Source of the DNA: a bacterium | Lineage (GTDB): Bacteria; Patescibacteriota; Minisyncoccia; UBA6257; 2-01-FULL-56-20 | Reading direction: 5' to 3' | Length of the DNA stretch: 48,128 nt | NCBI GenBank assembly: GCA_021813155.1 | Contig: JAKALK010000001.1 | Span: 1-48,128 of the forward strand | Part shown: positions 12,493-31,492 of the stretch, piece by piece | Position numbering within the stretch: position 1 is the stretch's first letter | Layout: each line of letters starts with the position of its first letter | Program-made: the position numbers and the translations under genes | Notes under the pieces: model-generated | What the model saw: only the letters and a program-made list of their open reading frames with translations | Database searches by the model: none | What the model was told of the DNA's origin: nothing

Positions 12493-15400
12493 CTAATTCG
12501 CTCCCGCCGGCGTTCCGCCTCCGGGCACAGTACATGTCGGAGCCGGTCCGTGCGAGTAGAGATAATCATTCAAGATAATCAAGTCAAACACATCCGGCTG
12601 ACCATCTCCATTGAAATCCGTCTTCACTCCCGTTGGCACCGTTCCGCCGCTGAAAATGTAGTTCTGATACATTACCGAATCACTTGCGTTGATTAAGCCA
12701 TCGGCATTAATGTCGCCGCAAGCCGCGGATGATACAGTTGTAATCGTCATTGTCTGACCGGCTACTGAATTGCAATTGTAAGCCTCATAGCTAGATTGCC
12801 CAACAGCGCCGCAATTGGAAAAGTTGGTTGCATTAGTAGTCCCTGGTTGGCCCGAAGGAAGAACGTCGGCATAGGCATCCACTATAGCCATGCCCCCCGC
12901 TGGGATCACGAGAGTACCCGTAAAGGCATACGTCCCGTTATTTACGAGTACGGGCTGAGTAATACCAAATTGCTGTCCACCAACCATAACTCTTATATTC
13001 TGAAAACTGCTTGCGTTCTGCCCGGCACCAACAGTAATGGTATTGATCCTTATTCCTTCTGAGCTTGGAGCTTTTACGATATATGAACCGATTTTAATGT
13101 TATTAATACCTGCAAGGAAACTACCTGGCCAAAAGGCTGTATTTTGAGACACGGAAATTTGATCAGCTACAATTACAGTCAATCTGTTTTCGGCAGTCGC
13201 CCCCTTGTTATCTTTAACAGTTACTTTTAACGTATAAGTTCCCGCTTTCAGCCACTTTACATCCATACAGAGAGAATTTTGTCCCGCTGGTTTAGTTCCG
13301 CAATCAACCGGTTGCTGGTAGATAGCACCGTCAACATAGGGATCTAACATACTTGTAAAGGTAGTGCCTGCGTAATCCGCAAAATCATAATCTCCGGCAT
13401 CCCACCTTAAACGTGAAGTTTGGCCCACTGCTTGACTAAGCGAAGCAGGGAAAGACGCGAAAAACGGTGGATGATTTACTGCCGTCCCCGCAGAATCAAT
13501 CGCAAAGTAATTATCGCTCCCATCAGAGCTACCTGTGGTCGGAGAATTAGGAGTGGCATCGCCAACATAAACTTTATAGTAAGATCCTGCCGGTATACTA
13601 AGAGGTATATTCCACGCAAAGTAATCTCCATAAGTCGCATTCGAACTATCTTGAGGATTACTTCGCCAAACAGCCGAGCCATCCCGAATGACATACTGTG
13701 TTCCATATCGAGCCCCCGGAGTGTAGTCAATCAAATTAATGGCAATATTTTTACCGCTATTATTTCCCGTCCATTTTACAGACCAAACTGAACCAGCAGA
13801 CCAATTTTCTCCCCCATTAGGTGAAGTGATTGTTATCCCCTGAGACGATGTGTTTCTCAAAACATTTACATAATCGCTCCTGCTTCCCGCAGACAAAGAA
13901 CAAACCATCGAAACTGCATAATCCCAGTTATTTTTATTCTCTTTAAGAAACACTGTCCGTTCACCCGATGGCGGCAATCCGTTGATAGCATCGCCCAAAT
14001 CATTTGGCAAAAAATTACAACTGTCAGCGTTAACTGAAGTCCACGTAAGTTTAACACTCTTGCCCCCGGCGGGTATGCTTACTGAGCTGTCTGACCCATC
14101 AATCCGAAAATCAACTTTCATATAATCGGCTGGTAAAAGCGTGAATGGATTATCGCTTCGATCAGTCGCTCCGGTTTGAGTGTTGACCAACCTAATATAG
14201 TAACCGTCTCCGGCCGGAGCATAATTTGAATCTCGATCAATTTCGCCAAACCACTGTATAGAACCTTTACCAGCTTTAATGACTTTCCCAACCGTGACAA
14301 ATTGGTCTCCCTGTTTCTTTTCAAGATATGCCTCCACAAAATTAGATTCTGGATCGGGAGTCCATTTGATAAAAACATTGCCTGAATTAAGCATCCACTT
14401 CTCACCTCCATTCGGTGAGACAACGGTTATTCCTGTTGTATTGGAAGCCGAAGCAATTATATTAAAATAATCACTTTCAGCTACAACTTTATTGGGTTCG
14501 CCAAATTTTATAAGCTGAATTTTATACATACCTGGCTTAATCGTCACTTGCCCGCAACTACTGGTGCATCCTGCTTCAAGAACAACTCCGTCCCAAATCA
14601 TTGATGTCGCGCCAGCGCCAAATAAACCAACACTTCCATTAGTACTATTCCCATAAATATCCACCAAAACTGTCTTATAAGCTAGAATATGCGAATCAGA
14701 GAACATAGGTTTATTCAACTTTATCTCGATTGGTTTTCCTAATTCCACATTCTGGCGAGCCACCGGCGATATAATCTTCATCCCAGTTTGGCTAGGAACT
14801 TGACTGAATCTAACTTCAACCCTAAACTCCCCAGCCTCTCTAAAACCACTAGGATCGTTTCCGGTAAATATCAAATATCCGGTTTCAGTTTGAGGAACTG
14901 AAAAATTTATCGAACCTTCAAAGTTGAATTGAGTGACACTCGGTTCGTAACTAAAATTAGTAACTTTCAATATAGCAACTCCGAGCTTCCGGCCGCTAGA
15001 ATCAAATAAAGAAGCATTGCCAGCCTCTCCCTCAAAAACACCCCACTTACCCTTAGAAGCATAACCGCTTATCTTAAGAGGAGAAGAAACAACTTGTCCT
15101 GATTGCGGAGATACCACAACTATCGCAGAATCTGGCTTCGGCTGAACTACATTGTCCCCGCACTCATAAAGCTGATTCAGCTTTTTCCTCGTTGATGCGC
15201 CCACGTAACCTGTTCCGCTCTTAAGACCGTTCGGCGTAAGAATCTCGCTTCTATATTTTTCCTGAAAACCACTTACTGCCGAAGCAGTCATCTCGTCAAA
15301 ATTCAAAGCTGTTCGTCCGTCTTGAAAAACATCTTGACTCAAAAGACCCTCTTTAACTAAAGCTCGGTCAAGATTAGTCACGTCATCATTTTGATCGCCA

Positions 15401-15624
15401 ATTTTCAAGTTCGTGTTAAATGTGTAACACCACTGCTCACCACTTCCTTGCGCTGTCGCTAATTGACCCTGCAAAACCTTGATTTTATCCAAGAGCGCTT
15501 GAATTTGCGCCTGTAACGCCGAAACAGTCACATCGCTTGTCTGAGCCAAACCCCGCCCCGGCAATATTAATAAACCTAAAAACAAAACCCCAACTATAAA
15601 ACCGCTAACTATTTTTTTATTCAT
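12493..15624 (-). CDS. giant secreted surface protein: signal peptide, coiled-coil motif, PG_binding_1-like domain, several Ig-like modules, C-terminal type-I dockerin repeat pair
   Basis: 1043 aa. Signal peptide MNKKIVSGFIVGVLFLGLLILPGRGLAQ. Helical motif VSALQAQIQALLDKIKVLQGQLATAQ. PG-binding-like block AVSGFQEKYRSEILTPNGLKSGTGYVGASTRKKLNQLY. Repeated GIT(V/I)(V/T)SPNGGE(K/N)W modules. C-terminal GDINADGLINASD...TDFNGDGQPDVFD, two DxNxDGxxxxxD calcium loops. Confidence 0.85.
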   Translation of the reverse strand: MNKKIVSGFIVGVLFLGLLILPGRGLAQTSDVTVSALQAQIQALLDKIKVLQGQLATAQGSGEQWCYTFNTNLKIGDQNDDVTNLDRALVKEGLLSQDVFQDGRTALNFDEMTASAVSGFQEKYRSEILTPNGLKSGTGYVGASTRKKLNQLYECGDNVVQPKPDSAIVVVSPQSGQVVSSPLKISGYASKGKWGVFEGEAGNASLFDSSGRKLGVAILKVTNFSYEPSVTQFNFEGSINFSVPQTETGYLIFTGNDPSGFREAGEFRVEVRFSQVPSQTGMKIISPVARQNVELGKPIEIKLNKPMFSDSHILAYKTVLVDIYGNSTNGSVGLFGAGATSMIWDGVVLEAGCTSSCGQVTIKPGMYKIQLIKFGEPNKVVAESDYFNIIASASNTTGITVVSPNGGEKWMLNSGNVFIKWTPDPESNFVEAYLEKKQGDQFVTVGKVIKAGKGSIQWFGEIDRDSNYAPAGDGYYIRLVNTQTGATDRSDNPFTLLPADYMKVDFRIDGSDSSVSIPAGGKSVKLTWTSVNADSCNFLPNDLGDAINGLPPSGERTVFLKENKNNWDYAVSMVCSLSAGSRSDYVNVLRNTSSQGITITSPNGGENWSAGSVWSVKWTGNNSGKNIAINLIDYTPGARYGTQYVIRDGSAVWRSNPQDSSNATYGDYFAWNIPLSIPAGSYYKVYVGDATPNSPTTGSSDGSDNYFAIDSAGTAVNHPPFFASFPASLSQAVGQTSRLRWDAGDYDFADYAGTTFTSMLDPYVDGAIYQQPVDCGTKPAGQNSLCMDVKWLKAGTYTLKVTVKDNKGATAENRLTVIVADQISVSQNTAFWPGSFLAGINNIKIGSYIVKAPSSEGIRINTITVGAGQNASSFQNIRVMVGGQQFGITQPVLVNNGTYAFTGTLVIPAGGMAIVDAYADVLPSGQPGTTNATNFSNCGAVGQSSYEAYNCNSVAGQTMTITTVSSAACGDINADGLINASDSVMYQNYIFSGGTVPTGVKTDFNGDGQPDVFDLIILNDYLYSHGPAPTCTVPGGGTPAGAN

Positions 15625-15704
15625 ACGATTAGATTTTCTTAATGAAGAATGAATTTAGAAAATCAATCGTCCCGAGGAGTCTCGGCGACGAGGGATTACA
15701 TTAA
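15625..15704 (-). repeat. copy A of a ~78-bp structured palindromic element abutting a start codon
   Basis: 15627-15668 is 100% identical to 16962-17003 (42 nt). The next 31 nt match at 22/31 by hand alignment. It lies 2 nt upstream of the ATG of the 1043-aa gene. The strand is given as mRNA sense; the functional strand is unproven. Confidence 0.85.
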
Positions 15705-15772
15705 CCCCGCCTTCATTAAAATTTATTATTGCCCTCCCAATTTTTAAAGTTCTAAGGGCTCAAAACCAGCTC

Positions 15773-15816
15773 GACTTTACTATTTAAATAATATTTCTTT
15801 CTTACTCTATTTGCAA
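15773..15816 (-). promoter_or_regulatory. candidate sigma70-like promoter of the 1043-aa surface-protein gene
   Basis: The minus strand reads TTGCAA (15811-15816), 17 nt, TATTAT (15788-15793), 9 nt, AAAGTC (15773-15778). This would give a ~150-nt 5' UTR that contains repeat copy A. Confidence 0.4.
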
Positions 15817-15826
15817 CAATGCCAAA

Positions 15827-15944
15827 CTACTTTTTCCGCCTAATTACTTTAAAAACAGCGCGAACAATATCCGGAACGTCCATGTCCCAATTTTGCCTGA
15901 AACGCAGCAAAGCAGCAAAGTCGAGGATCCCGCCATCGGCGGGG
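15827..15944 (-). pseudogene. degenerate relic of a transketolase C-terminal-subunit 3' end
   Basis: An open frame (+1 relative to tktC) runs directly after the tktC stop: SPADGGILDFAALLRFRQNWDMDVPDIVRAVFKVIRRKK*. Its last 20 aa share 9 identities with the live tktC tail YGMGILNIKTAVKKVLRRKR*, and both end in KV(L/I)RRK(R/K)-stop. Confidence 0.4.
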
Positions 15945-16961
15945 CTACCTTTTTCTTCGTAGAACCTTCTTCACTGCGGTCTTAATGTTTAATATCCCCA
16001 TGCCATATTTTTCAACCAATTCACTCGCCGGCCCCGACTCTCCAAAAACATCCTGCATTCCTATAAATTCCATAGGGCAGGGAGCGTTTTTAGCCAATAT
16101 CTCCGCGACAGCTCCACCTAAACCTCCCAAAACCTGATGCTCCTCAACAGTTACCACCGCTCCTGTCTTCCGAGCTAATTCAATAATTTTTTTCTCATCC
16201 AAAGGCTTTATGGTATGAGAGTTTAAAACAATCACCCCAATCTTCTCCTTCTCCAAATCCCGTGCCGCAATTAGCGCATTATATAGAAGCTGACCACACC
16301 CGATTATTAAAACCTGCGGTTTTAATAATCGCCCCGAGCCGGAAGAGGGGCTCCATAAAACCTCCACCTTACCTGGTGTAAATGGAGTTTCGTCAGTTGT
16401 AAAAACAGGACTCTTCTCTCTACCGAGTCTTATGTAAACCGGTCCCCAAATCTTTGCAGCCGCGAGTGTCGCCTTTTTAGCTTCAATCGCATCACAGGGC
16501 ACGATAACTTTCATATTCGCCATCACTCGCATAGTTGAAATGTCTTCAATCGCCTGATGGGTCGCCCCATCCGGTCCCACTGAAACACCGGCGTGCGCAC
16601 CTACAATTTTCACATTTGAATCGTTATAAGCAATCGTTGTTCTAATTTGCTCCCAGTTTCTTCCTGGGCTAAAAGTCGCGTAAGAAGCGATAAAAGGAAT
16701 CTTTCCAGAAACCCCGAGACCCGCCGCAATTGTCGCCAAGTTCTGTTCGGCCACTCCTACTTCAAAAAATCTCTCTGGAAACTTTTTCGCAAAAGCCTCG
16801 ACTCGCGTCGATTCCGTTAAGTCGGCAGAAAGCGCCACGACATTTTCATTTTCTTCACCAGCCAAAACCAAACCCTCACCAAAACCATCGCGAGTGGCAG
16901 TCATTTTTAATTTGCTCTCATCAAACAAATCCTGATTAAGTTTTGCGTTAGGATTTAACAT
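15945..16961 (-). CDS. transketolase, C-terminal (pyrimidine-binding plus C-terminal domain) subunit
   Basis: 338 aa. FFEVGVAEQN and GPDGATHQAIEDIS motifs; paired with the N-terminal subunit gene upstream. Confidence 0.9.
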   Translation of the reverse strand: MLNPNAKLNQDLFDESKLKMTATRDGFGEGLVLAGEENENVVALSADLTESTRVEAFAKKFPERFFEVGVAEQNLATIAAGLGVSGKIPFIASYATFSPGRNWEQIRTTIAYNDSNVKIVGAHAGVSVGPDGATHQAIEDISTMRVMANMKVIVPCDAIEAKKATLAAAKIWGPVYIRLGREKSPVFTTDETPFTPGKVEVLWSPSSGSGRLLKPQVLIIGCGQLLYNALIAARDLEKEKIGVIVLNSHTIKPLDEKKIIELARKTGAVVTVEEHQVLGGLGGAVAEILAKNAPCPMEFIGMQDVFGESGPASELVEKYGMGILNIKTAVKKVLRRKR

Positions 16962-17039
16962 GATTAGATTTTCTTAATGAAGAATGAATTTAGAAAATCA
17001 ATCATCCTGAGGAGCACAAGCGACGTAGGATTACTTAAA
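16962..17039 (-). repeat. copy B of the ~78-bp structured palindromic element, filling the tktN-tktC spacer
   Basis: The identical 42-nt core is at 16962-17003, flush with the tktC ATG (16959-16961). The related 31-nt arm is at 17004-17034. The whole 85-bp spacer between the tktN stop (17047) and the tktC start is essentially this element. Confidence 0.85.
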
Positions 17040-17046
17040 TTTTTAG

Positions 17047-17904
17047 TCATATTCCTCCATGAATCTTCCGACCTATTATCTCAAGCTCTTTTAGCGCCAT
17101 CTTAGCTTGCGACTGATTCGGCGGTATGCCGTGCCATTTATAATCACTCTCCATAAAACTCACCCCTTTTCCAGGAATGGTGTGCGCTATAATCATCGTC
17201 GGCTTTTCATGAATCGCTTTTGCCTCCGCCACTGCATCAACTATGTGTTCAAAATTGTGTCCGTCAATCTCAATCACATGCCAGTTAAACGCTTCATATT
17301 TTTCCTTTAAGGGCTCAAGCGGCATCACCCCTTCAGTGTAACCATCAATTTGAATATTATTTCGATCAACTAAAGCCGTTAAATTACTCAGTCGGTTTTT
17401 CCCCGCAAACATCACCGCCTCCCAGTGGTTCCCCTCTTGGTGCTCACCGTCAGAAGTTAAGCAGTAAATTCTATATTTCTTATTATCCAAGCGGGCAGCT
17501 AAAGCCATCCCAATAGCTTGAGAAAGTCCCGAACCCAAAGGTCCCGAGGTCGTCTCAAGTCCCGGTAAAACTTTTCTGTGCGGATGCCCCTGTAGCCTCG
17601 AGTTAAGCTTTCTAAGTGTCTTTAGCTCGTCAATAGAGAAATAGCCAGCATGAGCCAAGGTCGCGTATAAGACAGGACAGATGTGGCCATTCGACAAAAT
17701 CAACCGATCCCGATCCGGCCAATGTGGTTTCCTGGCATTATGATTTAAGATGTGAAAATAAAAAGCGGTGAAAATATCGGCCATACCCAAAGAACCAGCC
17801 GAGTGACCAGAGCCCGCTTGAACAAGCATCCTAATTATATCCTGCCTGATCCGGTTAGCTAATATTTCCAAAAATCTTACTTTTTTGTCATCCAAAATAA
17901 GCAT
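17047..17904 (-). CDS. transketolase, N-terminal (thiamine-diphosphate-binding) subunit
   Basis: 285 aa. GSGHSAGSLGMADI, LSNGH, and TSDGEHQEGNHWEA (GDG-type ThDP motif). Confidence 0.9.
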   Translation of the reverse strand: MLILDDKKVRFLEILANRIRQDIIRMLVQAGSGHSAGSLGMADIFTAFYFHILNHNARKPHWPDRDRLILSNGHICPVLYATLAHAGYFSIDELKTLRKLNSRLQGHPHRKVLPGLETTSGPLGSGLSQAIGMALAARLDNKKYRIYCLTSDGEHQEGNHWEAVMFAGKNRLSNLTALVDRNNIQIDGYTEGVMPLEPLKEKYEAFNWHVIEIDGHNFEHIVDAVAEAKAIHEKPTMIIAHTIPGKGVSFMESDYKWHGIPPNQSQAKMALKELEIIGRKIHGGI

Positions 17905-21268: not shown

Positions 21269-24200
21269 CTAAGGAATAAACGTAAGTTTCCATAAACCAC
21301 TCGAAGCTACCCATATCCATTTTCTCCCATCTGGTCCGGTCCAAGTAGTTAATCGATCTGGATTGTTGAGAGGCGGCAAATCCGGCGCGTTCCAAAGCGG
21401 AGCATAACCACCAAGCGGCACATAATTTGACGTATTTGCAACTGTTACGCTAGCTGTTTTACTTGCGCTTCCGCCTTTGCTATCAGTAACAGTGAGGGTC
21501 AAATTATATGTACCCGCGCTACGGAAATAATACTTGAGTTGAATCGAATTTCCGGATACTAATTTTCCGGCATACTGCGGTCCAGGATTCAAATTATCCT
21601 GCCAGAAATAAGTATCACCTCCCCAATCAATCCTATAAGTCATAGCATCTCCGTCTGGATCAGTTGCTTTAATATCCCAAGAACCGTTCACTGAAGGCGC
21701 AAGTGTGGTCGGTCCGGCAAAACTATCTATCACCGGCAATCTATTCGCAACCGGAGTCGATCCTGCTTTCTCCAGCCAATCCTGCACCGACCACCCGTCA
21801 ACTCCAGTATCGTAGTTTACGTTCCACCAAACGTATCCATCCGAATATTTTGGCCCGCCAACGATCGTTCCCAAATCTCCCGTCATTCTCGATCCCTGCG
21901 CCAATCCGGCAAGAGATCCGGCCGTCCGCACTTGCAAATAATCTCCAGTCACCCTCACCGGATCACCAATCACAAACTTAGCTGGTGGAAGAATGATAGT
22001 TGTATTGCTTGTTATATTCACCCTGATTGGTATTGCACTAACCGAATTCCCGGCCGCATCGGCCACAGTCAGTTGGACAGTTTTATAACCAGTCGTCGAG
22101 TAAGAGTGCATCTTAGCCACTGGAATTCCACTCGCCCCGCTAAAAGTCTCGGTGTTCCCATCCCCCCAAATTATTGTGTAAGACAAACTCATTCCTTCTG
22201 GGTCACTTGCCAAAATATTCCAGGACGCCGATACGCCAGCCAACAAGCTGACGGGCCCGGTGAAAGTTGTTATTATCGGCGCTCCGTTCCCACCAGTCGC
22301 ACCCGAAGTGACATTAACATTCAACGATCCTGAATCCGAACCTTGCCCATCCGACACCGTCACTCCGATCGTCTTCTGCCCCGTCGAAGTGTAAGTATGA
22401 GGCATCGAAATTACCTGACCGCTCGTGCCGGTATAAGTTGAAGTCGCGCTACCGTCTCCCCAATTCACGCTGTAAGAAAGAACAGTTGAGTCAGAATCAG
22501 TTGCGGAAACCTGCCAAGTCGCGCTTGTATTTATTGTCACACTAGCTGCTCCGGACGGGTTAGCTAAAACCGGCGGCTGATTTTGCGGATTTTGATGATC
22601 GCCAGACCCCGTATTATTTTCTCCATTATTTCCACTCGCAGAAATCGAAAACTGCTGGCTTGTCTGCTGCATAGAAATTCCAGGCTCAGCAGAATAAATT
22701 ATCACCACATAATCGTCCCGCGGCGGCAAATCAGCCGGTATATTCCAGATGTAGGAACCAGTATTAGGAGCGTTGAGTTTAATGATGCCGTAATTAGAGA
22801 GATAAATATGGACGCTACTTATGGTTGTCGGCATACTCCAACGTATTGTCAATGTTCCACCCGGTACCAATCTATCTGCTCCACTACTCTCAACATTCAC
22901 ATCTCCTTCACGAGAACCACCAACTTTCTCGAGCCAATACTGTATCGGGGCTCCTCCTCCTTCCGCCACCCAGCCACTTGGAGCTTGATCAAAATTTACC
23001 TGCCACCAACAATAACCACTTGCAGAAACAGGACCTCCATTAACCACGCCTTGATCATTATCATAGTGACCACCTAATTTATTTGCGTCAGGATTACTAC
23101 TTAACCGCTCTGGAGAAGAGCGAACATTTAGAGGATGCTCGGCATCAGTATTAATCACCTTCACCCCGTCTCCAGACTGAAATCTCGTGCTGCAAGGCGC
23201 CGTCACTGTAACCTGTTTAGTTGCCGTCGCTTTAAGTCCCGCCCCATCTGTAACCGTAAGAATTATCGTAAACGTTCCAGCTTGAGCATAAGTATGATTT
23301 ACATCTTTACTCGCCGTTGCTCCAGACAGAGAACCGGAATCCGGATTACTATTATCACCCCAATCAACAGCGTACGAAGCCAGAGCCCCCTCTGGGTCGC
23401 TTGCTGTAAATCGCCAAACTTGGCTCACGCCCACAAATACATTCCCGTCTCTATCGCCAGTAAAACTATCAATTTTCGGAGGTTGATTTCCTTTTTCGTA
23501 ACGACACACAGTATCTCCCCAAAAATTATTACCATAAACGGAAGGATTAACCGCATAAGTATTCAAGCAGTTCCACCGCCCACCCGAACCAGCTTGAGCA
23601 GCAACTCCCGCGGTAGGTAAAGAATTCTGCGCCACACTCGAAGGAATAGAAACCTGATAATTCACACTTACATAATAAGGATCGATCACTAAAACACCGT
23701 CTCCAATATTTATCTCTCGTCCCAAAATATTGTCAGCCGTAAAATCCCACTTACCTGTCGGGATTCCAATACTCTGTAAATTACCTTCAGAAGGCCAAGC
23801 ATCCCCGCCATAATCATAATGAACTTGCCACGTCCCAGATAACGGTCCGCCAATAATAACCCCTTTATCTTTTGTAAATCCTGTAAAGCCGACTCCAGCC
23901 CAAGAAGGAGTTAAACCAGCCAACGTTGTATTTCGCACTCTCGCCCCAATTGATAAACCAACTCCAGTTATTGGCGGAGTAGAAGTCGTTGCGGTTAAAG
24001 TCACCGCCACTGTTTTAGAAAACTGAGCAGTTAATCCACCTGGGTCATTCACCTTAAATACGATAGTAAAAACCCCAGTAGCACCAAAAGTGTGCGTCAG
24101 AGATAATGCAGAACCAGCAGGAGTAGTCGTATTATCTCCCCATGCCGCCTCGTAAGTTAGGGCATCGCCATTCGGATCAGTCGCCGCAACCGTCCAAGCT

Positions 24201-25846
24201 CCCATCTGCCCAACTTGAAGTGCTGTAGGACCCGACACATCAGAAATCGTCGGCGAACCGGGGTTTGCACCACCTCCCCCCGCAATCGAAAACGAAGCAC
24301 TAAACACATCTGTCCATTTCCCGTCGGTCTTATAAACAATTGCTTTTATAAAATACAACCCATCGGCCACGCCATTAGGAATAGTCCAATTATACGAACC
24401 CGACAAAAGCTGAGTTTTGGACAAATTCTCAACTATAGTTGACTGGGCCAAACCAGTCGCTTTATTAATCAAAATCAACCGTACCCCGCTAACCCCTATA
24501 GCATCCCAATCTCCCCATCTGATCGCGTACTGTTGACCCGTCTGCCAATTCTCCCCACCGCTCGGAACAGTAAACAAAAACCTATCAAAACTGCCGCCAG
24601 CATTGGGTTTCACCACACTTACAACCTGAGTGCCGCTCAAGCTCTTTCCGTTTGAATCTCTCACGGTAACCGAAACCGTGTAAGTCCCGATAGACGTATA
24701 TGTATGCCTAGCATTCACATTTTGTCCGGCTAAGGCAGTATATGTACTATTCGCGCTCCCATCCCCCCAACGAACCGTATAAGTCAAAGTCCCCTCACCT
24801 TGGGCGCTTATAGTCAAATAACTTTCTTTATTCGCTACAAGATCTGTGGGCGCGTCGATGACAAGAGAACTGGGCGGCTGGGCAGAGTGTTCAATAAACA
24901 TTTCACTCGTCCAACCCGTATATCCAGCATCAAAACTAAATTGCCACATTGTATCGTCACGGTAAGGCATTGGACCACCCACCACTGTGCCTAAAGCATT
25001 AAGTGGCAATTTACTAGGAAGAACACTGGCCGTCCCTAAATCATAGCCTGAATAAATACTCCGGTTATTCATAAAATTTTTGACCCTTTCCCCGGCAACA
25101 AACTTAACATTCGTTGGTACTTTTTCTAAAAATTTTTCTGCTGTCCACCCATCCTTCCAATAATTGTAATCAACTTTCCACCACCAGCAATCACAACCGT
25201 TGACAACCGCACGCTCGGGACCACCAATTATCTTCCCTAAATCTCCGGCATAACGCGAACCCGGATAAGAGTTGCCGCCAGCAGTCTCTCTTACATACAC
25301 CCCACTTTCAGTTACCTTCACAGAATCTCCGATTGAAAATTTAGTTGAAACCGGCGTCGGTATTGATCCAGCCGGAACGACACTAAACGCATTACTCACA
25401 TTCAAATCTATAGGATTTGCGAAATCAGACCTATAAGTTCTGGTTATTATTTTATACGGCCCAGGTTTAAGGGTAGATGGGATCGTCCAATCAAAACCCA
25501 TTTGGCCAGATCCAATCACAAAATCCTTAGAAATTTTTTGGTCAAATATAGTAACTGGAGCAGGCCAAGCAAAATCAGTCGTGACATCTACGTATAAAAC
25601 ACTTATATGTGAAAGCCATGTCGTCGGAGTCCTCTCCCAAGAACCGTCATATTGTTGATTCCAACGAATAGAAAGCTTGCTCCCTGCCTCCACAATTTCA
25701 CTCCCGTTTGGCGCCGTAAAAGTGTTGACCTCTGCTGCTCCATAGTATGGATTAATTTTAGTCTGCGCCGAAACCTTTACCGGAGAAACAACGACCCAAC
25801 TAAAACCTACCAAAGCCGCTAACGAAAAAACGATAATTTTTTTCAT
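21269..25846 (-). CDS. giant secreted mosaic surface protein (6 PKD-like, about 5 SH3b-like, about 3 Ig-like modules)
   Basis: 1525 aa. Signal peptide MKKIIVFSLAALVGFSWVVVSPVKVSAQ. Six blocks with (W/Y)x(V/I)xWG(D/G)(G/N/D)...HxY...GxYx(V/I)x(L/F)xVxDxxG. SH3b-like blocks such as FVIGDPVRVTGDYLQVRTAGSLAG...GDLGTIVGGPKYSDGYVWWNVNYDTGVDGWSVQDWLEKA. Confidence 0.85.
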   Translation of the reverse strand: MKKIIVFSLAALVGFSWVVVSPVKVSAQTKINPYYGAAEVNTFTAPNGSEIVEAGSKLSIRWNQQYDGSWERTPTTWLSHISVLYVDVTTDFAWPAPVTIFDQKISKDFVIGSGQMGFDWTIPSTLKPGPYKIITRTYRSDFANPIDLNVSNAFSVVPAGSIPTPVSTKFSIGDSVKVTESGVYVRETAGGNSYPGSRYAGDLGKIIGGPERAVVNGCDCWWWKVDYNYWKDGWTAEKFLEKVPTNVKFVAGERVKNFMNNRSIYSGYDLGTASVLPSKLPLNALGTVVGGPMPYRDDTMWQFSFDAGYTGWTSEMFIEHSAQPPSSLVIDAPTDLVANKESYLTISAQGEGTLTYTVRWGDGSANSTYTALAGQNVNARHTYTSIGTYTVSVTVRDSNGKSLSGTQVVSVVKPNAGGSFDRFLFTVPSGGENWQTGQQYAIRWGDWDAIGVSGVRLILINKATGLAQSTIVENLSKTQLLSGSYNWTIPNGVADGLYFIKAIVYKTDGKWTDVFSASFSIAGGGGANPGSPTISDVSGPTALQVGQMGAWTVAATDPNGDALTYEAAWGDNTTTPAGSALSLTHTFGATGVFTIVFKVNDPGGLTAQFSKTVAVTLTATTSTPPITGVGLSIGARVRNTTLAGLTPSWAGVGFTGFTKDKGVIIGGPLSGTWQVHYDYGGDAWPSEGNLQSIGIPTGKWDFTADNILGREINIGDGVLVIDPYYVSVNYQVSIPSSVAQNSLPTAGVAAQAGSGGRWNCLNTYAVNPSVYGNNFWGDTVCRYEKGNQPPKIDSFTGDRDGNVFVGVSQVWRFTASDPEGALASYAVDWGDNSNPDSGSLSGATASKDVNHTYAQAGTFTIILTVTDGAGLKATATKQVTVTAPCSTRFQSGDGVKVINTDAEHPLNVRSSPERLSSNPDANKLGGHYDNDQGVVNGGPVSASGYCWWQVNFDQAPSGWVAEGGGAPIQYWLEKVGGSREGDVNVESSGADRLVPGGTLTIRWSMPTTISSVHIYLSNYGIIKLNAPNTGSYIWNIPADLPPRDDYVVIIYSAEPGISMQQTSQQFSISASGNNGENNTGSGDHQNPQNQPPVLANPSGAASVTINTSATWQVSATDSDSTVLSYSVNWGDGSATSTYTGTSGQVISMPHTYTSTGQKTIGVTVSDGQGSDSGSLNVNVTSGATGGNGAPIITTFTGPVSLLAGVSASWNILASDPEGMSLSYTIIWGDGNTETFSGASGIPVAKMHSYSTTGYKTVQLTVADAAGNSVSAIPIRVNITSNTTIILPPAKFVIGDPVRVTGDYLQVRTAGSLAGLAQGSRMTGDLGTIVGGPKYSDGYVWWNVNYDTGVDGWSVQDWLEKAGSTPVANRLPVIDSFAGPTTLAPSVNGSWDIKATDPDGDAMTYRIDWGGDTYFWQDNLNPGPQYAGKLVSGNSIQLKYYFRSAGTYNLTLTVTDSKGGSASKTASVTVANTSNYVPLGGYAPLWNAPDLPPLNNPDRLTTWTGPDGRKWIWVASSGLWKLTFIP

Positions 25847-25862
25847 ATATAAAAATCAAAAA

Positions 25863-25881
25863 GACCTTTCCTATTATTATA
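25863..25881 (-). promoter_or_regulatory. TATAAT-N6-AAAGGTC promoter/leader motif upstream of the 1525-aa gene
   Basis: The minus strand reads TTGGGT-17 nt-TATAAT-aatagg-AAAGGTCtttttgatttttatatATG. Confidence 0.4.
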
Positions 25882-25947
25882 GGCAAATCAAAATCAACAC
25901 CCAAGAGATCTTATCCCCATAAACCTAACCCAAAAACTATAGAAATC

Positions 25948-28830
25948 TTAACGACAACTCCCCTTACTTACCAAAGCTAAATAGGCCTCAGCTGACCAGC
26001 CGTCTACCCCGTATTGATAATTTACTCTCCACCAGGTGTAGCCACCGGCAGTTACTGGCCCTTCCTTGATTTCTCCTTGAGATTCTGGTGGTTGTTGGCC
26101 TACTACTGTCGTCCCACCAGGAGTAGAACGAACGTTAACCATATCTGTGGGTCTCACGATGTCGCAGAGGGCGAAATTCGAAGAGCTCTCTCCGCTCTCG
26201 CCTACAATTGCAAAAGGCATACTGACTTGCTGCATCGGAACACCCTCATCGGCAGAATAGATAATGATTACATAATTATCTTTAGGCACAACGTCAGCCG
26301 GTATAGTCCAAGTATAAGAACCAGTATTAGGAGCATTCAAAACAATTAAACCAACCGTGGCTAAATAGATATGCACCTTAGTAACGTTAGCGGGGGCCGT
26401 CCAAGTAATTGTCCTCGTCTCGCCAACTCGCCAAACGTCTTGAGTCGCTGGCGAAGTAATCGTAATTCCATCTCCACTCGAACTACCGACTGGGCTAAGA
26501 TAATTTGAATTTGTCCAAATCGATGGCCAACTAGAATGATCATAAGTTACCTGCCACCAGCAAATATTATTCTGGCGTTGTGGTCCGCTTTTTACTGTGC
26601 CAAGAGAACCATTCAGTGAATTGATTCCAACAAGATTCCTACCGGGCGGTTCGCTATGGCTAAAAGGCCTCGATCCATCTGGGACCAAAACCTGAACTCT
26701 TTCACTAACTGCATATGTCGAAGCGCAAACCGTAGTCGTTGCCACCTCGCCTGTGCCAATTAAATAGCTAGGGACCTCCCCGCCAAAAAATGCTTCTTCC
26801 GGAGACCATCCCCGCCAAGCAGGATATTTTGTTGCTTCTGTTGATGGTAAATACTGCACCCTGTACCACCACCCGGTTTTGAGAAATTCTGGGTCTAGAC
26901 TAATCGTCCCAGCTGTCCCCGCCGGCCACTGCCCTAAAACCGGTCCGTTTGGAGCTACCGACTCGCCTAATACTGCCCAAGTTGGCGGCGAAAACAAAAT
27001 CTTTAAATTCTGCTGGAGCGTCACGCCGCCGCTCGTGGCCTTTGGTTTGCTCCGGTCGCTAGTTATCCAGTTGCCCGCTGACCAGCCCTGCAAACCATTT
27101 TCCCAGCTCACCTGCCACCAAACAAGATTTGCCACCTCAACTGGACCGCCCATTATTATCCCTTGTTTGTCACGATCAACTTGGCCCAAAGACTCCGGCC
27201 AAGTGAGAATGTCATTTGATATAGGTGTACTTTTTCTAACGTTTAAACCATTTATACCTTTAGGGCCGCCACCAAGCGAAACACATTCCCCTTCGGCAAA
27301 TCTTTGTTTAACCGCCAGTTGCTCGGTAGAAAGTGGCGTACACAAATCATCGAGTTGAGACACCTTCACCCACCCCACCATTCCTGTCCAATTAGTTGTC
27401 CCTCCCGCTCCTGGAGAACCAAAACCTACTCTCACCCACCAATCTCCCCCCCAAAACGTAACCGGTCCCACCATTGATCTTCCATCTACTTTCCCGATCG
27501 CGTATTTAGGCTTTGGACCAAGTTCCGGTATCGGAATATAATCCGGGGCTGGGCCCAGATAGCTCCCATTAGTTGCCGGATCTTTGCCTCCAAGCATCTG
27601 CATCACCATCACCGGCTCCTTAGTTCTCAATTTCGTGCCGGGCGCAAACCTAGCCAGCATCGCTGGATCCAAAACCCCAACCTTCATTACTGCCGTACCC
27701 TTAACCCCCGAAGCATTATCAATTGCCGTAAATTTAATACTGTATATTCCCGGCGCACTATATTTGTGAGTCGCTGTTTTCGCTGAACCTCTAGTCGTAA
27801 CATCCGGAGTATAACTGTCTTTAGAATTATCCCCCCAATCTACTGCAAAAGTGAAAGAAACCCCGCTAGCGATAACCGACAAATCCCACTGGCCATCTTG
27901 GTTAGGAGATAAAGTAGGCTGCCCATTTATTCCGGGCTTGAAAAACGCCTTTCCCCCAACCGTCACTCCCCCAGGCACATTGCCAGTTGTTGATGGAGTC
28001 ACAGTAACCATGGCCGTTGCTGTCCCAACCGCCCCCCAGGCATCTTGGCAACTGAATGTAATCGTATAACTACCCGTCTGGACGTAAAAATGGCTGTCTT
28101 CGTAATCTTCCACGCCATCGCCCCATTTTGTTTTACTACAATTGTAAGCATCTCCGTCTGGGTCCGTTATTGTCCACGTCCAAAATCCGCCTTCATATAT
28201 TTCAAGTGTTGATGGCCCCAAAATACCAGAAATTACTGGCGGCTGATTCGCCGCCGGTGGATTACTTTTTTCAATCCAAGTCCCCTCGGCCATAAAGAGC
28301 AAAATATTTGTCATGCCCGGTAAATTACACGTCACATTCCACCAGTTATATCCATCCGCTACCGTTGGGCCTTTTTTTAAATTACAACTTACCCCTGCCG
28401 GAACTGTCTTATATATAGAAGCTGAAAGATTCGGAGCAGTTCTCAAATTAACATTATCGGTAGTCACCACCCAATCCCCCACCTTATACGCGCTCGGCAC
28501 CGTGACTGGAACTTTTTCAAGACCGGTTTCGTCAGACCATCCCGTAAGTCCATCATTCCATTTAACCAACCATTTCCCGTTGTGCGGCCAATTTTGGATA
28601 ACTCCTTTATTTCCAACACTCTCACTTCCTAAAAGTGTCGGCGGTACTCCAGTCATACTTGGCCCATAAGAAGACCACACATCTAACTTCGAAACACTAT
28701 TAGCTACTTGTACTTGATCAAAAACACTAAACTTATATGTAGCTGTCTGCGCCTGCGCTTGATCGACTTTAAAACCAAAACCCGGCGCAAGCAAAACAAC
28801 TGCCACCAAAAAAACGCTAAACTTTTTCAT
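25948..28830 (-). CDS. giant secreted mosaic surface protein (about 7 SH3b-like, 2 PKD-like, 1 Ig-like module)
   Basis: 960 aa. Signal peptide MKKFSVFLVAVVLLAPGFGFKVDQAQAQ. PKD-like blocks (KTKWGDGVEDYEDSHFY...; FAVDWGDNSKD...HKYSAPGIYSIKFTAID). SH3b-like blocks ending in GWSDETGLEKV, GWSAGNWITS and GWSAEAYLALV. The Ig-like module is shared with the 1525-aa protein. Confidence 0.85.
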   Translation of the reverse strand: MKKFSVFLVAVVLLAPGFGFKVDQAQAQTATYKFSVFDQVQVANSVSKLDVWSSYGPSMTGVPPTLLGSESVGNKGVIQNWPHNGKWLVKWNDGLTGWSDETGLEKVPVTVPSAYKVGDWVVTTDNVNLRTAPNLSASIYKTVPAGVSCNLKKGPTVADGYNWWNVTCNLPGMTNILLFMAEGTWIEKSNPPAANQPPVISGILGPSTLEIYEGGFWTWTITDPDGDAYNCSKTKWGDGVEDYEDSHFYVQTGSYTITFSCQDAWGAVGTATAMVTVTPSTTGNVPGGVTVGGKAFFKPGINGQPTLSPNQDGQWDLSVIASGVSFTFAVDWGDNSKDSYTPDVTTRGSAKTATHKYSAPGIYSIKFTAIDNASGVKGTAVMKVGVLDPAMLARFAPGTKLRTKEPVMVMQMLGGKDPATNGSYLGPAPDYIPIPELGPKPKYAIGKVDGRSMVGPVTFWGGDWWVRVGFGSPGAGGTTNWTGMVGWVKVSQLDDLCTPLSTEQLAVKQRFAEGECVSLGGGPKGINGLNVRKSTPISNDILTWPESLGQVDRDKQGIIMGGPVEVANLVWWQVSWENGLQGWSAGNWITSDRSKPKATSGGVTLQQNLKILFSPPTWAVLGESVAPNGPVLGQWPAGTAGTISLDPEFLKTGWWYRVQYLPSTEATKYPAWRGWSPEEAFFGGEVPSYLIGTGEVATTTVCASTYAVSERVQVLVPDGSRPFSHSEPPGRNLVGINSLNGSLGTVKSGPQRQNNICWWQVTYDHSSWPSIWTNSNYLSPVGSSSGDGITITSPATQDVWRVGETRTITWTAPANVTKVHIYLATVGLIVLNAPNTGSYTWTIPADVVPKDNYVIIIYSADEGVPMQQVSMPFAIVGESGESSSNFALCDIVRPTDMVNVRSTPGGTTVVGQQPPESQGEIKEGPVTAGGYTWWRVNYQYGVDGWSAEAYLALVSKGSCR

Positions 28831-28849
28831 ATTATAGTTTTATTAAAAA

Positions 28850-28871
28850 GACCTTTTTATCGCTTACTATA
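28850..28871 (-). promoter_or_regulatory. TATAGT-N7-AAAAAGGTC promoter/leader motif upstream of the 960-aa gene
   Basis: The minus strand reads caatTATAGTaagcgatAAAAAGGTCtttttaataaaactataatATG. Confidence 0.35.
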
Positions 28872-28886
28872 ATTGTACGCCATACG

Positions 28887-28931
28887 CTAAAAAACAAAAA
28901 CCGCCGATTTTATCCCCAAAATCAGCGGTTT
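28887..28931 (-). terminator. rho-independent terminator of the 846-aa gene
   Basis: 28898-28911 pairs with 28918-28931 in a 14-bp stem. The single C-A mismatch on plus becomes a G-U wobble in the minus-sense RNA. The loop is 6 nt, and TTGTTTTTT follows on the minus strand. Confidence 0.75.
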
Positions 28932-28951
28932 CCCTAATTTAATATTTACCC

Positions 28952-31492
28952 TTATCTCAATTGCTCTAAAATCGCGAAGAGTTGAGCTTTTATTTGATCA
29001 AGTTGAGTCTGAATCACTTGAATTGCTAAAGCTGCATAATTTAATGGCTCTAGCCCGCTCATCGGTGTTTTTTCCAGCCAATTCTCTGCCGACCATCCGT
29101 CCGGAGCGTTCACATAGTCTATTTGCCACCACCAGTAGGTATCGGCAAATTTCGGTCCGCCGACAACCGTACCCAAATCTCCTGTATTCTTTCTCCCAAT
29201 TATAGTTCCAGTAGGAATATCTCTTACCTGCACACTTGGCGCTGTTACCCGAATCTTGTCTCCAACCGAAAACTTGTTCGAAACTTGCGGCGTCGAAGTC
29301 GGCGTATTTATCGAATCAATTTTTGCAAGCTTAACCTCTTTTGTCCAACTGGTAAAACCGAGGTCATAATTTACACGCCACGACCACTCGAAGTTGGAAA
29401 ATGTTGGCCCACCAATAACAGTACCGGCGCCCCTATCGCCAGAATATTCGACGTTTCGAACTCTGTCGCCAATTATAAATCTTGTAGAAGGTGCCAGAGT
29501 TGCTACTTGAACCGACACAGTTTTACTAGCGAGCCCTCCTCTACTATCAACTACAGTAAACGTCGGAGTATAACTTCCCGCAGTTGCATAAGTATGTTTA
29601 AAACTCGAGAAAGGTCGATTCTGGGTCTCCGTTGTACCGTCTCCCCATATCGCACTATACGACCAAGTATCGTAATCTGGGTCTGATGCCAGAACCGTCC
29701 AAGTGGCATCTTCTCTAGTGAACACACTTGCCGGACCAGTAAAATCAGAAATAACAGGAGGCCTATTAGTAATCGTTCCGCCAGAACCGGTTTTCTCAAG
29801 CCAATCCCCGGCGGACCAACCATCCACTCCAGTGTCGTAATTAATTTGCCACCACCAATAGCGGTTGTCAGACTTAGGACCTCCTACAACAACTCCTGTA
29901 TCTCCAACGCCCCTGACCCCTAATAATGGGGTATAATCGCTAAAAACATCCCTCACCTGAACATTCGGCGCCGTTACTTTAATTTTGTCTCCAGCCGCAA
30001 ACTTATTCGAAGCTTGTGGCGTCGACGTTGCCGGCATATCAGTTTGCACCGTCTGCACCACAGTCGTTTTCGTCGCCGTTAATCCTTTATCGTCAGTCGC
30101 TGTAAAAGTAATAGTATATCCCCCACTTGGGGCGTAAGCATGTGAGAAACTCTTTGAGACACCACTCGCCATTCCAGTTGCCTCCGCTTCGCTACTGCTA
30201 TCGCCCCATTTTACTTTGTAATTAAGCGCTTTCCCTTCCGGATCAGTAGCAATAAAAGTCCAAGAATTCGAAACAGCAGCCGTTACAGTTGAAGGACCAT
30301 TTACCATAAGATTTGTCGGCGCTTGATTGCCCGGCGACGTTGAAGTTGAGGTTCCATCTCCAGTAATCGAGCAGTCCTCTGTCAAACACTTTCGAAAAGC
30401 AAGACTGTAAGCGGTATACTGATCAAACGACCATCCCTCAACACCATCACTCCACTTGATCTTCCACCAAAAAATTAGAGGAGCCTCTGAGGAAAAAACT
30501 GGACCATTTGTTACAATCCCAAAATCCCCGACTGTCCTTTTCCCCAAAGGGCTCGAATCATCAGCTCCAACATAAGGATTCCTAGCAATAAAAGCAGGGG
30601 TTAAATAAACTTGTCTCTCTTCATACACCCGCACCCTATCTCCGATTCCGTATCTAAGTTTAAAATAAGAGTAATTATTATCTTCAGACCAGCCTTGTGT
30701 ATTATCATTCCACCTTATATTCCACCATACCTTTCCATCCGCATTGGTTGGCCCACCCACCACAACTCCGGAATCTCCGTTGTGTTTAGTAGCTATAGGG
30801 GTAAGAGTTATCATAGGAAAAACCCGAACATCAATACTACTATCCTGCCTAACAGCTACTTTGTCGCCAATAGAAAGTTGAGTGTAACTTCGAACCGGGC
30901 TAGATGGTTTTTTAAGATAAACTTCCATTCCATCTTGCGCTCCCTCTTTTGCCCAATTTTCCACCACACCCCCCCTGCCACCACTTGAAATCATATTTCC
31001 TCTTACCTTCCATAACGTATATCCACTAGAAAGAACAGGCCCATCAACGATAGTCACCATGCTATACGATGGTAATAAGCCTCCGTAAAAATCAATCGAG
31101 GGCGCCGAAAAAACATCCATTGATTTCTCCGACATCACATTGTCACCAATAGAAAACTTACTCGAATAAGTCCGCTCAAAACCTTTTAAATAACTCTCTG
31201 CCGACCAACCCACCATACTATCGCTTGACCAGCTAACTTTCCACCAAGTATAGCCCTCCGCTGATATCGGACCATCAATTATAGCTCCTAAATCTCCAAC
31301 CTTTCTTGTGCCCAATGCGGTTTGAGAAATCGAAGCGGTTGGCCTAACTCGCACTGCGTCGGCCGCGAAAATCTCTTCGTGAATTGAAAAACTACCAGCT
31401 CCGCTCGCCCGCGCCGTCTCATTATTTACCCCACCCCAACCCCCAACCACCGCCAAAGTCACTAATAAAAAAACAACAAATCTCTTTTCCAT
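28952..31492 (-). CDS. giant secreted mosaic surface protein (about 7 SH3b-like, 2 PKD-like modules, C-terminal coiled-coil motif)
   Basis: 846 aa. N-terminal hydrophobic signal MEKRFVVFLLVTLAVVGGWGG...ARA. PKD-like blocks (YKVKWGDSSSE...HAYAPSGGYTITFTATDDKG; YSAIWGDGTTE...HTYATAGSYTPTFTVVDSRGG). SH3b-like blocks ending in GWSAGDWLEKT and GWSAENWLEKT. C-terminal AIQVIQTQLDQIKAQLFAILEQLR. Confidence 0.85.
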   Translation of the reverse strand: MEKRFVVFLLVTLAVVGGWGGVNNETARASGAGSFSIHEEIFAADAVRVRPTASISQTALGTRKVGDLGAIIDGPISAEGYTWWKVSWSSDSMVGWSAESYLKGFERTYSSKFSIGDNVMSEKSMDVFSAPSIDFYGGLLPSYSMVTIVDGPVLSSGYTLWKVRGNMISSGGRGGVVENWAKEGAQDGMEVYLKKPSSPVRSYTQLSIGDKVAVRQDSSIDVRVFPMITLTPIATKHNGDSGVVVGGPTNADGKVWWNIRWNDNTQGWSEDNNYSYFKLRYGIGDRVRVYEERQVYLTPAFIARNPYVGADDSSPLGKRTVGDFGIVTNGPVFSSEAPLIFWWKIKWSDGVEGWSFDQYTAYSLAFRKCLTEDCSITGDGTSTSTSPGNQAPTNLMVNGPSTVTAAVSNSWTFIATDPEGKALNYKVKWGDSSSEAEATGMASGVSKSFSHAYAPSGGYTITFTATDDKGLTATKTTVVQTVQTDMPATSTPQASNKFAAGDKIKVTAPNVQVRDVFSDYTPLLGVRGVGDTGVVVGGPKSDNRYWWWQINYDTGVDGWSAGDWLEKTGSGGTITNRPPVISDFTGPASVFTREDATWTVLASDPDYDTWSYSAIWGDGTTETQNRPFSSFKHTYATAGSYTPTFTVVDSRGGLASKTVSVQVATLAPSTRFIIGDRVRNVEYSGDRGAGTVIGGPTFSNFEWSWRVNYDLGFTSWTKEVKLAKIDSINTPTSTPQVSNKFSVGDKIRVTAPSVQVRDIPTGTIIGRKNTGDLGTVVGGPKFADTYWWWQIDYVNAPDGWSAENWLEKTPMSGLEPLNYAALAIQVIQTQLDQIKAQLFAILEQLR

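Follow-up and report, generated by a model that had tools for sequence, protein, structure and literature searches.

Short structured repeats between bacterial genes are best known as repetitive extragenic palindromes and their mosaic arrays (REP/BIME) and as co-transcribed miniature inverted-repeat transposable elements (MITEs), for example the Correia elements of Neisseria. They are short imperfect intergenic palindromes that occur in either orientation, often within operons, that fold in mRNA and that can affect its stability, processing or translation. GA-cis (RF02987), an Rfam motif of two hairpins with unknown function, is a described RNA with a similar layout. Here a structured element of about 75-85 nt is reported that shares features with both. 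It was found twice in a 48,128-nt stretch of a patescibacterial genome (GenBank assembly GCA_021813155.1, contig JAKALK010000001.1, positions 1 to 48,128; hereafter the window), in front of the genes for a large surface protein and for the C-terminal subunit of a split transketolase (tktC). Two precise registers recur in the family, either 2 nt after tRNA-Gln or ending at a start codon. The family is previously undescribed, and no description of the element was found in the literature searched.

A large part of bacterial diversity belongs to the Patescibacteria, or candidate phyla radiation (CPR), which have hardly been cultured and for which very few regulatory RNAs or repeat elements are described. 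The small element reported here has solid comparative support and is common to Saccharibacteria and Paceibacteria-type genomes. The window itself comes from a Paceibacteria-type Patescibacterium with large surface proteins, and the closest homologues of its tktC carry the names Paceibacterota, Harrisonbacteria and Liptonbacteria. A clear Shine-Dalgarno (SD) sequence is absent from most genes of the window.

Results

Copies in the window and in other genomes

The original prediction, made from the window alone, described a 42-nt core present twice with full identity. Both cores were recovered on the + strand with 0 mismatches, at 15627-15668 (copy A) and 16962-17003 (copy B), and 0 matches occurred in 100 shuffles. 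A repeat finder extended the core to an 85-nt unit with 84% identity (15620-15704 and 16955-17039, repeat family D5). A recount of the 31-nt arms that follow the cores gave the same 22/31 identical positions as before, with GGATTAC at the end of both. A large segmental duplication was rejected because similarity between the copies ends at the 85-nt unit.

Both copies are located on the + strand between minus-strand genes. The core of copy A is 2 nt from the start of a 1043-aa surface protein with Dockerin, Gmad2 and PKD-like domains (open reading frame (ORF) 12493-15624, minus strand; ATG at 15622-15624), and that of copy B is 0 nt from the start of tktC (ORF 15945-16961, minus strand, 338 aa, domains Transket_pyr and Transketolase_C; ATG at 16959-16961), in agreement with the distances first proposed. 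The latter gene is part of an rpiB-rpe-tktN-tktC operon. The ORF of tktN, which encodes the N-terminal subunit (17047-17904, minus strand; TGA stop at 17047-17049), ends 85 nt upstream of the tktC ATG, so that copy B fills the tktN-tktC spacer completely. This too had been predicted, and no base is left between the stop codon, copy B and the ATG.

Further copies were sought with a pattern in which both stem arms were fixed and the loop was free, in species-representative genomes and in JGI and other metagenomes. These scans gave 27 further matches (about 20 distinct loci, labeled with an L prefix below) in assemblies of Saccharibacteria and other Patescibacteria. The species-representative genomes contributed 10 matches in 6 metagenome-assembled genomes (MAGs), namely three Saccharibacteria, one 'Patescibacteria group', WY3.bin51 (3 copies) and clean1859 (2 copies); the JGI and other metagenomes contributed 17 loci. 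Each MAG held 1-3 exact copies. A covariance model built from 24 units, which can be used for annotating the family, recovered all pattern matches and also diverged units in L006. Within the ~66 kb searched for this genome, made up of the window and ~18 kb of flanking sequence (~10 kb and ~8 kb), it detected copies A and B and no third one. The copy-number check that accompanied the original prediction thus returned a dispersed family and not one duplication: the two window repeats are genuine copies of a Patescibacteria-wide structured family.

In viral contigs (IMG/VR) the fixed-arm pattern found no real copies. A loose pattern for the GA module gave 75 chance matches there, 0 of them with the hairpin, and a phage origin was rejected. 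One public MAG contig (L004, NCBI DAIBYE010000003.1) has its base 1 inside the loop of the long hairpin of copy B; the palindrome appears to break MAG assemblies, as at this contig start.

Structure and covariation

The element is described as read on the window + strand, which is the tRNA strand at other loci (T-sense). Each unit has two hairpins with nothing between them. The first is AU-rich and bulged, with about 17-18 bp, and the second is short, its internal loops being tandem G.A pairs. Counted from its base, hairpin 1 has a Y:R pair, stems of 4 bp and 8 bp with one bulged base between them, a U.U mismatch and a 3-bp extension, and its loop has the form GA-N(3-7)-GA. The 4+8-bp AU-rich hairpin of the original prediction is therefore present, although it is longer than proposed, by the 3-bp extension and by one or two basal pairs formed from nucleotides taken for spacer. 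Hairpin 2 has a minimal form, UCCC-GA-GC-GNRA-GC-GA-GGGA, and a long form seen in both window copies, UCCY-GA-G-GA-...-GA-C-G(A/U/C)-RGGA, which can be read as two tandem G.A loops or as k-turn-like. A tail, (A/C)YUAC, and an AT-rich stretch follow.

Hairpin 1 of copy A spans 15625-15670 (+ strand), with basal pairs 15625:15670 (A-U) and 15626:15669 (C-G), the 4-bp stem and a bulged A15631; its upper part, within the same interval, comprises the 8-bp stem, the U.U mismatch, the 3-bp extension and a 9-nt loop, GAAGAAUGA. In mRNA sense the 3' arm of this hairpin covers -1 to about -17 of the surface-protein start. Hairpin 2 of copy A (15670-15699, + strand) is of the long form, with a canonical stem (C-stem) UCCC/GGGA and GA-G-GA opposite GA-C-GA, open to the same two readings, and then a short stem, a loop and the tail UUAC. 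In copy B, hairpin 1 (16960-17005, + strand) has a core identical to that of copy A, and A16960 and T16961, the bases complementary to the U and A of the tktC AUG, form part of its two basal pairs. The N-terminus encoded by tktC (MLNP...) is also kept in orthologues without the element. Hairpin 2 of copy B (17005-17046, + strand) has a UCCU/AGGA C-stem, a G.U in place of the outer G.A and again the tail UUAC, beyond which an AT-rich extension (CTTAAATTTTTAG) continues up to the tktN stop codon. Read in mRNA sense, this flank has the family consensus AAAWTTAAG, followed directly by GTARTCC. The difference between the two C-stems (pair 55:85) is a compensatory one, as had been suspected.

Folding of both window copies was better than that of shuffles on both strands (z -2.6 to -4.4). 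Across the family, 95.8% of cells were paired, compared with 33-52% in slid controls; double changes were present at ten pairs, and 0/500 shuffles attained the observed values. The covariation is clear at positions where the search pattern had left the sequence free. For helix 2 alone, 97.5% of cells were paired and 4/5 pairs had double changes. A newly found basal pair, -1:+43, was paired in 23/23 distinct loci (C-G in 7, U-A in 16), and a further A-U basal pair, -2:+44, in 5/6 distinct start-codon loci. With these extra pairs the stem reaches exactly to position -1 at the genes for the surface protein and NusA, and at tktC it takes in the A and U of the AUG. In a flipped unit (L006:4101-4146) every U-A was changed to A-U or C-G and the bulge was retained. 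The predicted pairing of both helices is backed by this covariation, and the description of a structured element with covarying stems was upheld by the slid controls and the shuffles. The original remark that it was not recognized as a known RNA family also stood: at the gathering threshold, Rfam scans of the window and the 27 loci returned tRNAs only.

Genomic contexts

Two recurrent contexts were observed, a commoner one after tRNA-Gln and a rarer one in which the element is reverse-oriented at a start codon. At five distinct tRNA-Gln loci (L005, L007, L090, L093/L099 and L096) the core follows the discriminator base at a distance of 2 nt. Between tRNA and element there is no terminator at the tRNA-Gln loci, and intrinsic terminators are located solely further downstream (L007, L105). 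At other loci the element follows a 3' fragment of tRNA-Gln (L006/L014/L103, L102, L105). L006 contains a tandem array of such fragment-plus-unit repeats, and a 16-nt tRNA-like prefix (TATCGAGGCCGTKGCT) is common to five copies in two MAGs. Same-sense copies between co-directional genes make up another set (L095, L010, L101, L009, L011, L091), with HtpX (L010) and SecA (L101) among the neighbors; at L095 the TAG within the element's GATTAG serves as the stop codon of the upstream gene.

The reverse-oriented copies at start codons are those of the window (tktC and surface protein), L107 (tktC), L092 and L098/L100 (NusA) and L094, where the gene encodes a secreted protein unrelated to the surface protein of the window. 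At these loci the left edge of the element abuts CAT plus 0-2 nt. A fixed register to the AUG, as originally claimed, therefore recurs independently at the NusA loci and at L094, and at the orthologous tktC of L107, but it is a minority context: at most loci the element is on the opposite strand relative to transcription when compared with the window copies, and no start codon comes after it. Neighboring genes had no common function across loci, and a pathway-specific leader was rejected on the grounds that the flanking genes are unrelated. No tRNA-Gln was found in the window or in the ~18 kb of flanking sequence.

Some features of the neighborhoods were recorded as side observations. A conserved structured block lies downstream of tRNA-Gln-linked copies (L007, T-sense about 160-320; L006:4940-5010; L005:4600-4670, minus strand; L096:8945-9020). 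It has covarying hairpins, C/D-box-like words (GUGAUAG...CUGA...GAUGAG...CUGA) and, in L007, an intrinsic terminator at its end, and it had no Rfam match. DnaA-box 9-mers (TTATNCACA) were located at offsets of -29 (L009), +81 (L010), +68 (L090) and +147 (L094) from the core start, about 11-fold denser within ~200 nt of copies (4 in 11.2 kb) than elsewhere (5 in the remaining ~159 kb). They are treated as a side observation, since none was found close to the window copies. At L006:2502-3705, just upstream of the tRNA-Gln that bears the tandem unit array, are toxin-antitoxin-like genes (HicB-like, RelE/HigB-like and DUF4065-like, as judged by eye from translations), which are consistent with an island-prone site.

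Conservation at orthologous sites

In L107, which represents a different species with a tktC protein 86% identical to that of the window, the element is found at the same tktN-tktC junction. The coding DNA of the two is 75-78% identical, with third codon positions at 49-51%, whereas spacer and element together are identical at 81/85 positions (12/12 in the AT-rich extension and 69/73 in the element). Two of the four differences constitute one compensatory change from A-U to G-C, one breaks a pair, and the remaining one changes the hairpin-2 loop from ACAA to GCAA on the + strand, restoring a GNRA loop there. Between two NusA loci the element is 88% identical, with third positions at 53% and distal upstream sequence at 52%. 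Identities of 88-95% and compensatory changes, where synonymous sites are saturated at ~50%, place the orthologous copies under purifying selection. These comparisons show that the copies are not decaying junk and that they are maintained, through selection or through ongoing conversion by a conserved master copy.

At L092 and L100 a conserved sigma-70-type promoter (TTGACT/TATACT) is located about 60-130 nt upstream of the nusA ATG, and a GC hairpin with U7 stands directly after it, ahead of the element, in the manner of an attenuator-like nusA leader. A conserved promoter about 130 nt upstream of the ATG places the reversed element inside the 5' untranslated region (UTR) of nusA.

The tktN-tktC junction varies in content among relatives. 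The window and L107 have the element there; L108 has an unrelated structured insert, GC-rich and 157 nt long (1369-1525), L109 has small ORFs (1-271), and L110 (4769-5998; also L111) has a 409-aa dockerin-domain gene with spacers of 5 nt and 2 nt. No clean empty site was recovered among the L107-L111 relatives. These arrangements mark the junction as an insertion hot-spot in the lineage and show that surface-protein genes move around the operon.

Local context in the window

A relic of a second tktC C-terminus (QNWDMDVPDIVRAVFKVIRRKK, then a stop; 15827-15895, minus strand) is located between tktC and copy A, ~45 nt past the current tktC stop, and has 68% identity (tblastn) to related tktC C-termini. 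It is closer to the C-termini of relatives than to that of tktC itself, which indicates that this lineage has undergone a replacement or rearrangement of the tktC 3' end. The relic is a mark of past rearrangement at the locus and provides context outside the element. Together, the junction inserts and the relic fit mobility or recombination around the element.

A sigma-70-like promoter match, TTGCAA-17-TATTAT, was found at 15788-15816 on the minus strand; it is a consensus match only. If this predicted promoter is used, copy A lies inside a ~155-nt 5' UTR of the surface-protein mRNA. The element as a promoter for leaderless mRNAs was rejected: a sigma-70 consensus scan found no passing site inside it, and no -10-like hexamer was seen to be kept across copies when read by eye. 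On the + strand, promoter-like and terminator-like matches are present at 15695-15729 (after copy A) and 15928-15954 (before the tktC stop). These, too, are consensus matches only, and might delimit a small transcript from the + strand. Elsewhere in the window (21269-31492, minus strand) three very large paralogous surface-protein genes (1525, 960 and 846 aa) have internal repeat families in common (D1-D12).

Discussion

The roles considered here for the element family are candidate roles, proposed from sequence comparison; the same holds for the transcription of either strand and for effects on translation or on processing. Our tentative preference is for a cis-acting fold-back module within the mRNA that occludes the initiation region. 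The element is most often at home in the 70-80 nt that directly follow tRNA-Gln, where it would be transcribed together with the tRNA, as its trailer, in the sense of the window + strand; copies have dispersed to other intergenic sites in either orientation. The window copies are reverse-oriented and would lie inside mRNAs, copy B as the whole intercistronic spacer of tktN and tktC and copy A in the surface-protein leader. In the mRNA the two adjacent hairpins would fold back and bring the entering and leaving strands together, so that the 75-85 inserted nt would add little effective distance between stop and start. The base of the long stem would end exactly at, or 2 nt into, the start codon and would occlude -1 to about -17 of an SD-less start. 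Selection would keep the fold, which would set, and most likely damp, initiation at that start; at tktC it would also hold stop and start spatially close for coupled translation, and it may double as a double-strand-specific processing site. A cis action of the element, if real, would illustrate how initiation is tuned, and how insertions within operons are tolerated, in extremely compact genomes that are poor in SD sequences.

Predicted accessibility of the initiation regions goes part of the way with this reading. For positions -18 to +6 the predicted unpaired probability of tktC was 0.26, the lowest of the 36 genes of the window, and that of the surface-protein gene was 0.35, the 6th lowest. 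Several observations weigh against it, however. The occlusion is moderate: the next two genes after tktC have values of 0.28 and 0.30, other genes fall at 0.28-0.31, and tktC is no extreme outlier. On the + strand the loop motifs are invariant: GA/GA in the internal loops, GA...GA in the terminal loop, and the GNRA-like loops. By established knowledge of RNA motifs, tandem G.A, GA...GA and GNRA-like loops are recognized solely on that strand, the mRNA sense giving UC/UC. The motifs can thus be read only antisense to the window genes, and hairpin 2 is equally conserved in the reversed copies, where its mRNA-sense loops are meaningless. A strand test by G.U versus A.C cells ended in a tie (4 and 3), from which it follows that the Watson-Crick pairs cannot tell the strand. 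Finally, the hairpin-1 arms are near-invariant across classes of the phylum, and are conserved beyond the adjacent tRNA-Gln, which simple structural selection does not predict; the arms fixed in the search pattern bias the sample toward this invariance. A hairpin-2 sequence that is meaningful only on the other strand and near-invariant hairpin-1 arms are left unexplained by the cis model.

A melting hairpin of the RNA thermometer kind, which the original prediction had offered as one possibility, was not supported. Thermometers such as fourU and ROSE have a stem that masks an SD, and no SD is present in the last 20 nt before either ATG; the only GGAGG-like words are on the opposite strand or, for copy B, further upstream than the element. 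The absence of extreme occlusion at tktC also speaks against it.

The other possibility raised at the outset, a REP/MITE-like element, agrees with the dispersal of the family, though not with its copy number. In its broader form this explanation holds that the element is a selfish non-autonomous mobile module, either MITE/REP-like or an arm of small integrative elements targeting tRNA-Gln, with no host function, and that the start-codon register reflects a target preference together with the survival of boundary insertions only in very compact genomes. We consider it less likely. In its favor, the left flank reads CA[G/T]NN in about 16/22 loci, copies are found in both orientations beside unrelated genes, and what occupies the tktN-tktC junction differs between close relatives, L107 having the element like the window and L108, L109 and L110 having other inserts. 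Displaced tRNA-Gln 3' fragments before units (L006, L102, L105) and the L006 tandem arrays resemble the outcome of integrase-type events, and the shared 16-nt tRNA-like prefix adds to this. Near-identity of hairpin 1 in distant lineages suggests horizontal spread, and the combination in copies A and B of 100% identical cores with second hairpins of different subtypes suggests concerted evolution. Against these points, copy number is very low (2 per ~66 kb here; 1-3 exact copies per MAG), consistent terminal inverted repeats (TIRs) and target-site duplications (TSDs) are absent, and no transposase, REP-associated tyrosine transposase (RAYT) or integrase was seen beside any copy among the neighboring genes scanned. 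There was no orientation bias relative to GC skew, and viral contigs held no copies. The conservation of orthologous copies, far above neutral and accompanied by compensatory changes, is not expected of junk.

The exact placement of reversed copies over the initiation region, which the cis model does not explain, would follow from a trans-antisense regulon. Here the + sense RNA of the tRNA-Gln trailer would be a small RNA and the reversed start-codon copies its fully complementary, portable targets; the duplex would block initiation or trigger double-strand cleavage, tying the output of tktC, NusA and surface proteins to tRNA-Gln transcription. Such a scheme would account for a frozen sequence, and not just a frozen structure, across lineages, including hairpin 2 of the reversed copies, and for the identical core and loop variant of copies A and B. 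The + sense copy in a transcribed tRNA unit with a downstream terminator would suit it as well. We nevertheless regard it as improbable: among the genomes examined none was shown to have both orientation classes, the window and its ~18 kb flanks have neither a + sense transcribed copy nor tRNA-Gln, and co-directional + sense copies are also placed inside ordinary operons (L095, L010). The reading is entirely inferential. If it were true, transketolase, NusA and surface proteins would make up a small regulon of a new type, coupled to the transcription of tRNA-Gln, in bacteria (the ultra-small CPR) that, to our knowledge, are without Hfq-type small RNA systems.

Slightly less probable again is that the + sense RNA is always the functional one, as a protein-binding tandem-G.A or k-turn RNA distantly related to GA-cis, with the window copies antisense-transcribed or inactive. 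The invariant GA...GA internal and terminal loops are on the + strand, which in most loci is co-oriented with transcription; weak matches to GA-cis (18.7 and 13.6 bits) recur with strand and register unchanged, and in L107 the loop that differs by GCAA for ACAA is again a GNRA loop on the + strand. This explanation is poorly matched to the start-codon loci, where the + strand has no conserved upstream promoter and the region is coding sequence of unrelated genes, and to copy B, inside an operon transcribed in the opposite direction. Nor was an L7Ae/YlxQ-type gene seen near any copy, including near nusA or in the window; the GA-cis scores are far below the gathering score, and the window copies had no GA-cis match at E <= 10. 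That copy B encodes a 28-residue peptide, in a frame open in both the window and L107 whose start overlaps the tktN stop (ATGA) and whose stop is 2 nt before the tktC ATG, is effectively refuted, because all 4/4 differences between the two are non-synonymous while two of them form a compensatory base pair, and because in that frame copy A lacks a start codon and is closely preceded by a stop, with other family members in frame with nothing.

Comparison with known systems

Compared with REP/BIME and MITEs, the element is very low in copy number, is without TIR, TSD or cognate transposase, and is conserved across classes of a phylum; it also has a fixed register to tRNA-Gln or to a start codon and a second hairpin with a specific G.A motif. 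REP and REPIN families reach tens to hundreds of copies per genome, far from the 2 copies in ~66 kb and 1-3 exact copies per MAG counted here, and no RAYT (IS200-like Y1) gene was present among the neighboring genes scanned. A flank comparison of all copies gave no consistent TIR or TSD of the MITE kind; L011 alone had an 8-bp inverted TATCGAGG/CCTCGATA at its flanks. The constant orientation to replication, on the lagging-strand template, of IS200/IS605-derived palindrome-associated transposable elements (PATEs) was not found either, with GC skew in + sense from -0.25 to +0.31 (a weak proxy), and a replication-strand bias was absent. Integron attC sites have RYYYAAC...GTTRRRY, whereas the hairpin foot of all copies is YGATTAG...AATCR, with no GTTRRRY.

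Closer parallels are found among RNAs and RNA-binding sites. The commonest context of the element, as an immediate tRNA 3' trailer that could be released by 3' processing, is like that of the 3' external transcribed spacer (ETS) RNAs, for example E. coli 3'ETS-leuZ. At the sequence level the 5 distinct tRNA-Gln loci fit this type, but the window copies, which are not beside a tRNA and have the opposite orientation, do not, and release of the element trailer as a stable RNA is only presumed. In mRNA sense, a bulged hairpin whose base reaches or includes the start codon recalls translational operators such as the MS2 replicase operator. The element differs in having no SD in the hairpin and no known binding protein, and in occurring with the same sequence where no start codon follows. 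Its long form also has the parts of a kink-turn as bound by L7Ae, namely C-stem UCCC/GGGA, a 3-nt bulge GAG, G.A/A.G pairs and a non-canonical stem; the short form, however, has a symmetric 2x2 GA/GA without bulge (eight copies), and some copies replace the outer G.A by G.U or G-C.

GA-cis is the closest of the Rfam families. Permissive scans gave only weak GA-cis, K10_TLS and snoRNA-like noise, with GA-cis at 18.7 bits in L006 and 13.6 bits in L105, compared with a gathering score of 34.7; the window copies were not reported at E <= 10. The two have in common the two-hairpin layout on the same strand, a CGAAG-type loop in hairpin 1 with UUAGAA on its 3' arm, the word CGACGA, a second hairpin CC-GA-gc-GNRA-gc-GA-GG with tandem G.A loops, and a (G)AUAC tail. 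Word order was compared in one cmscan alignment, scoring below significance. By this comparison CGACGA is inside hairpin 2 in the element and between the hairpins in GA-cis, and the element is without the 5' word AGGAGG and has an AU-rich hairpin 1 with a fixed bulge. The element is GA-cis-like, and not a member by the Rfam threshold. It can be placed as a variant among known kinds, either GA-cis-like RNA motifs or structured intergenic repeats, and its dual register is unusual.

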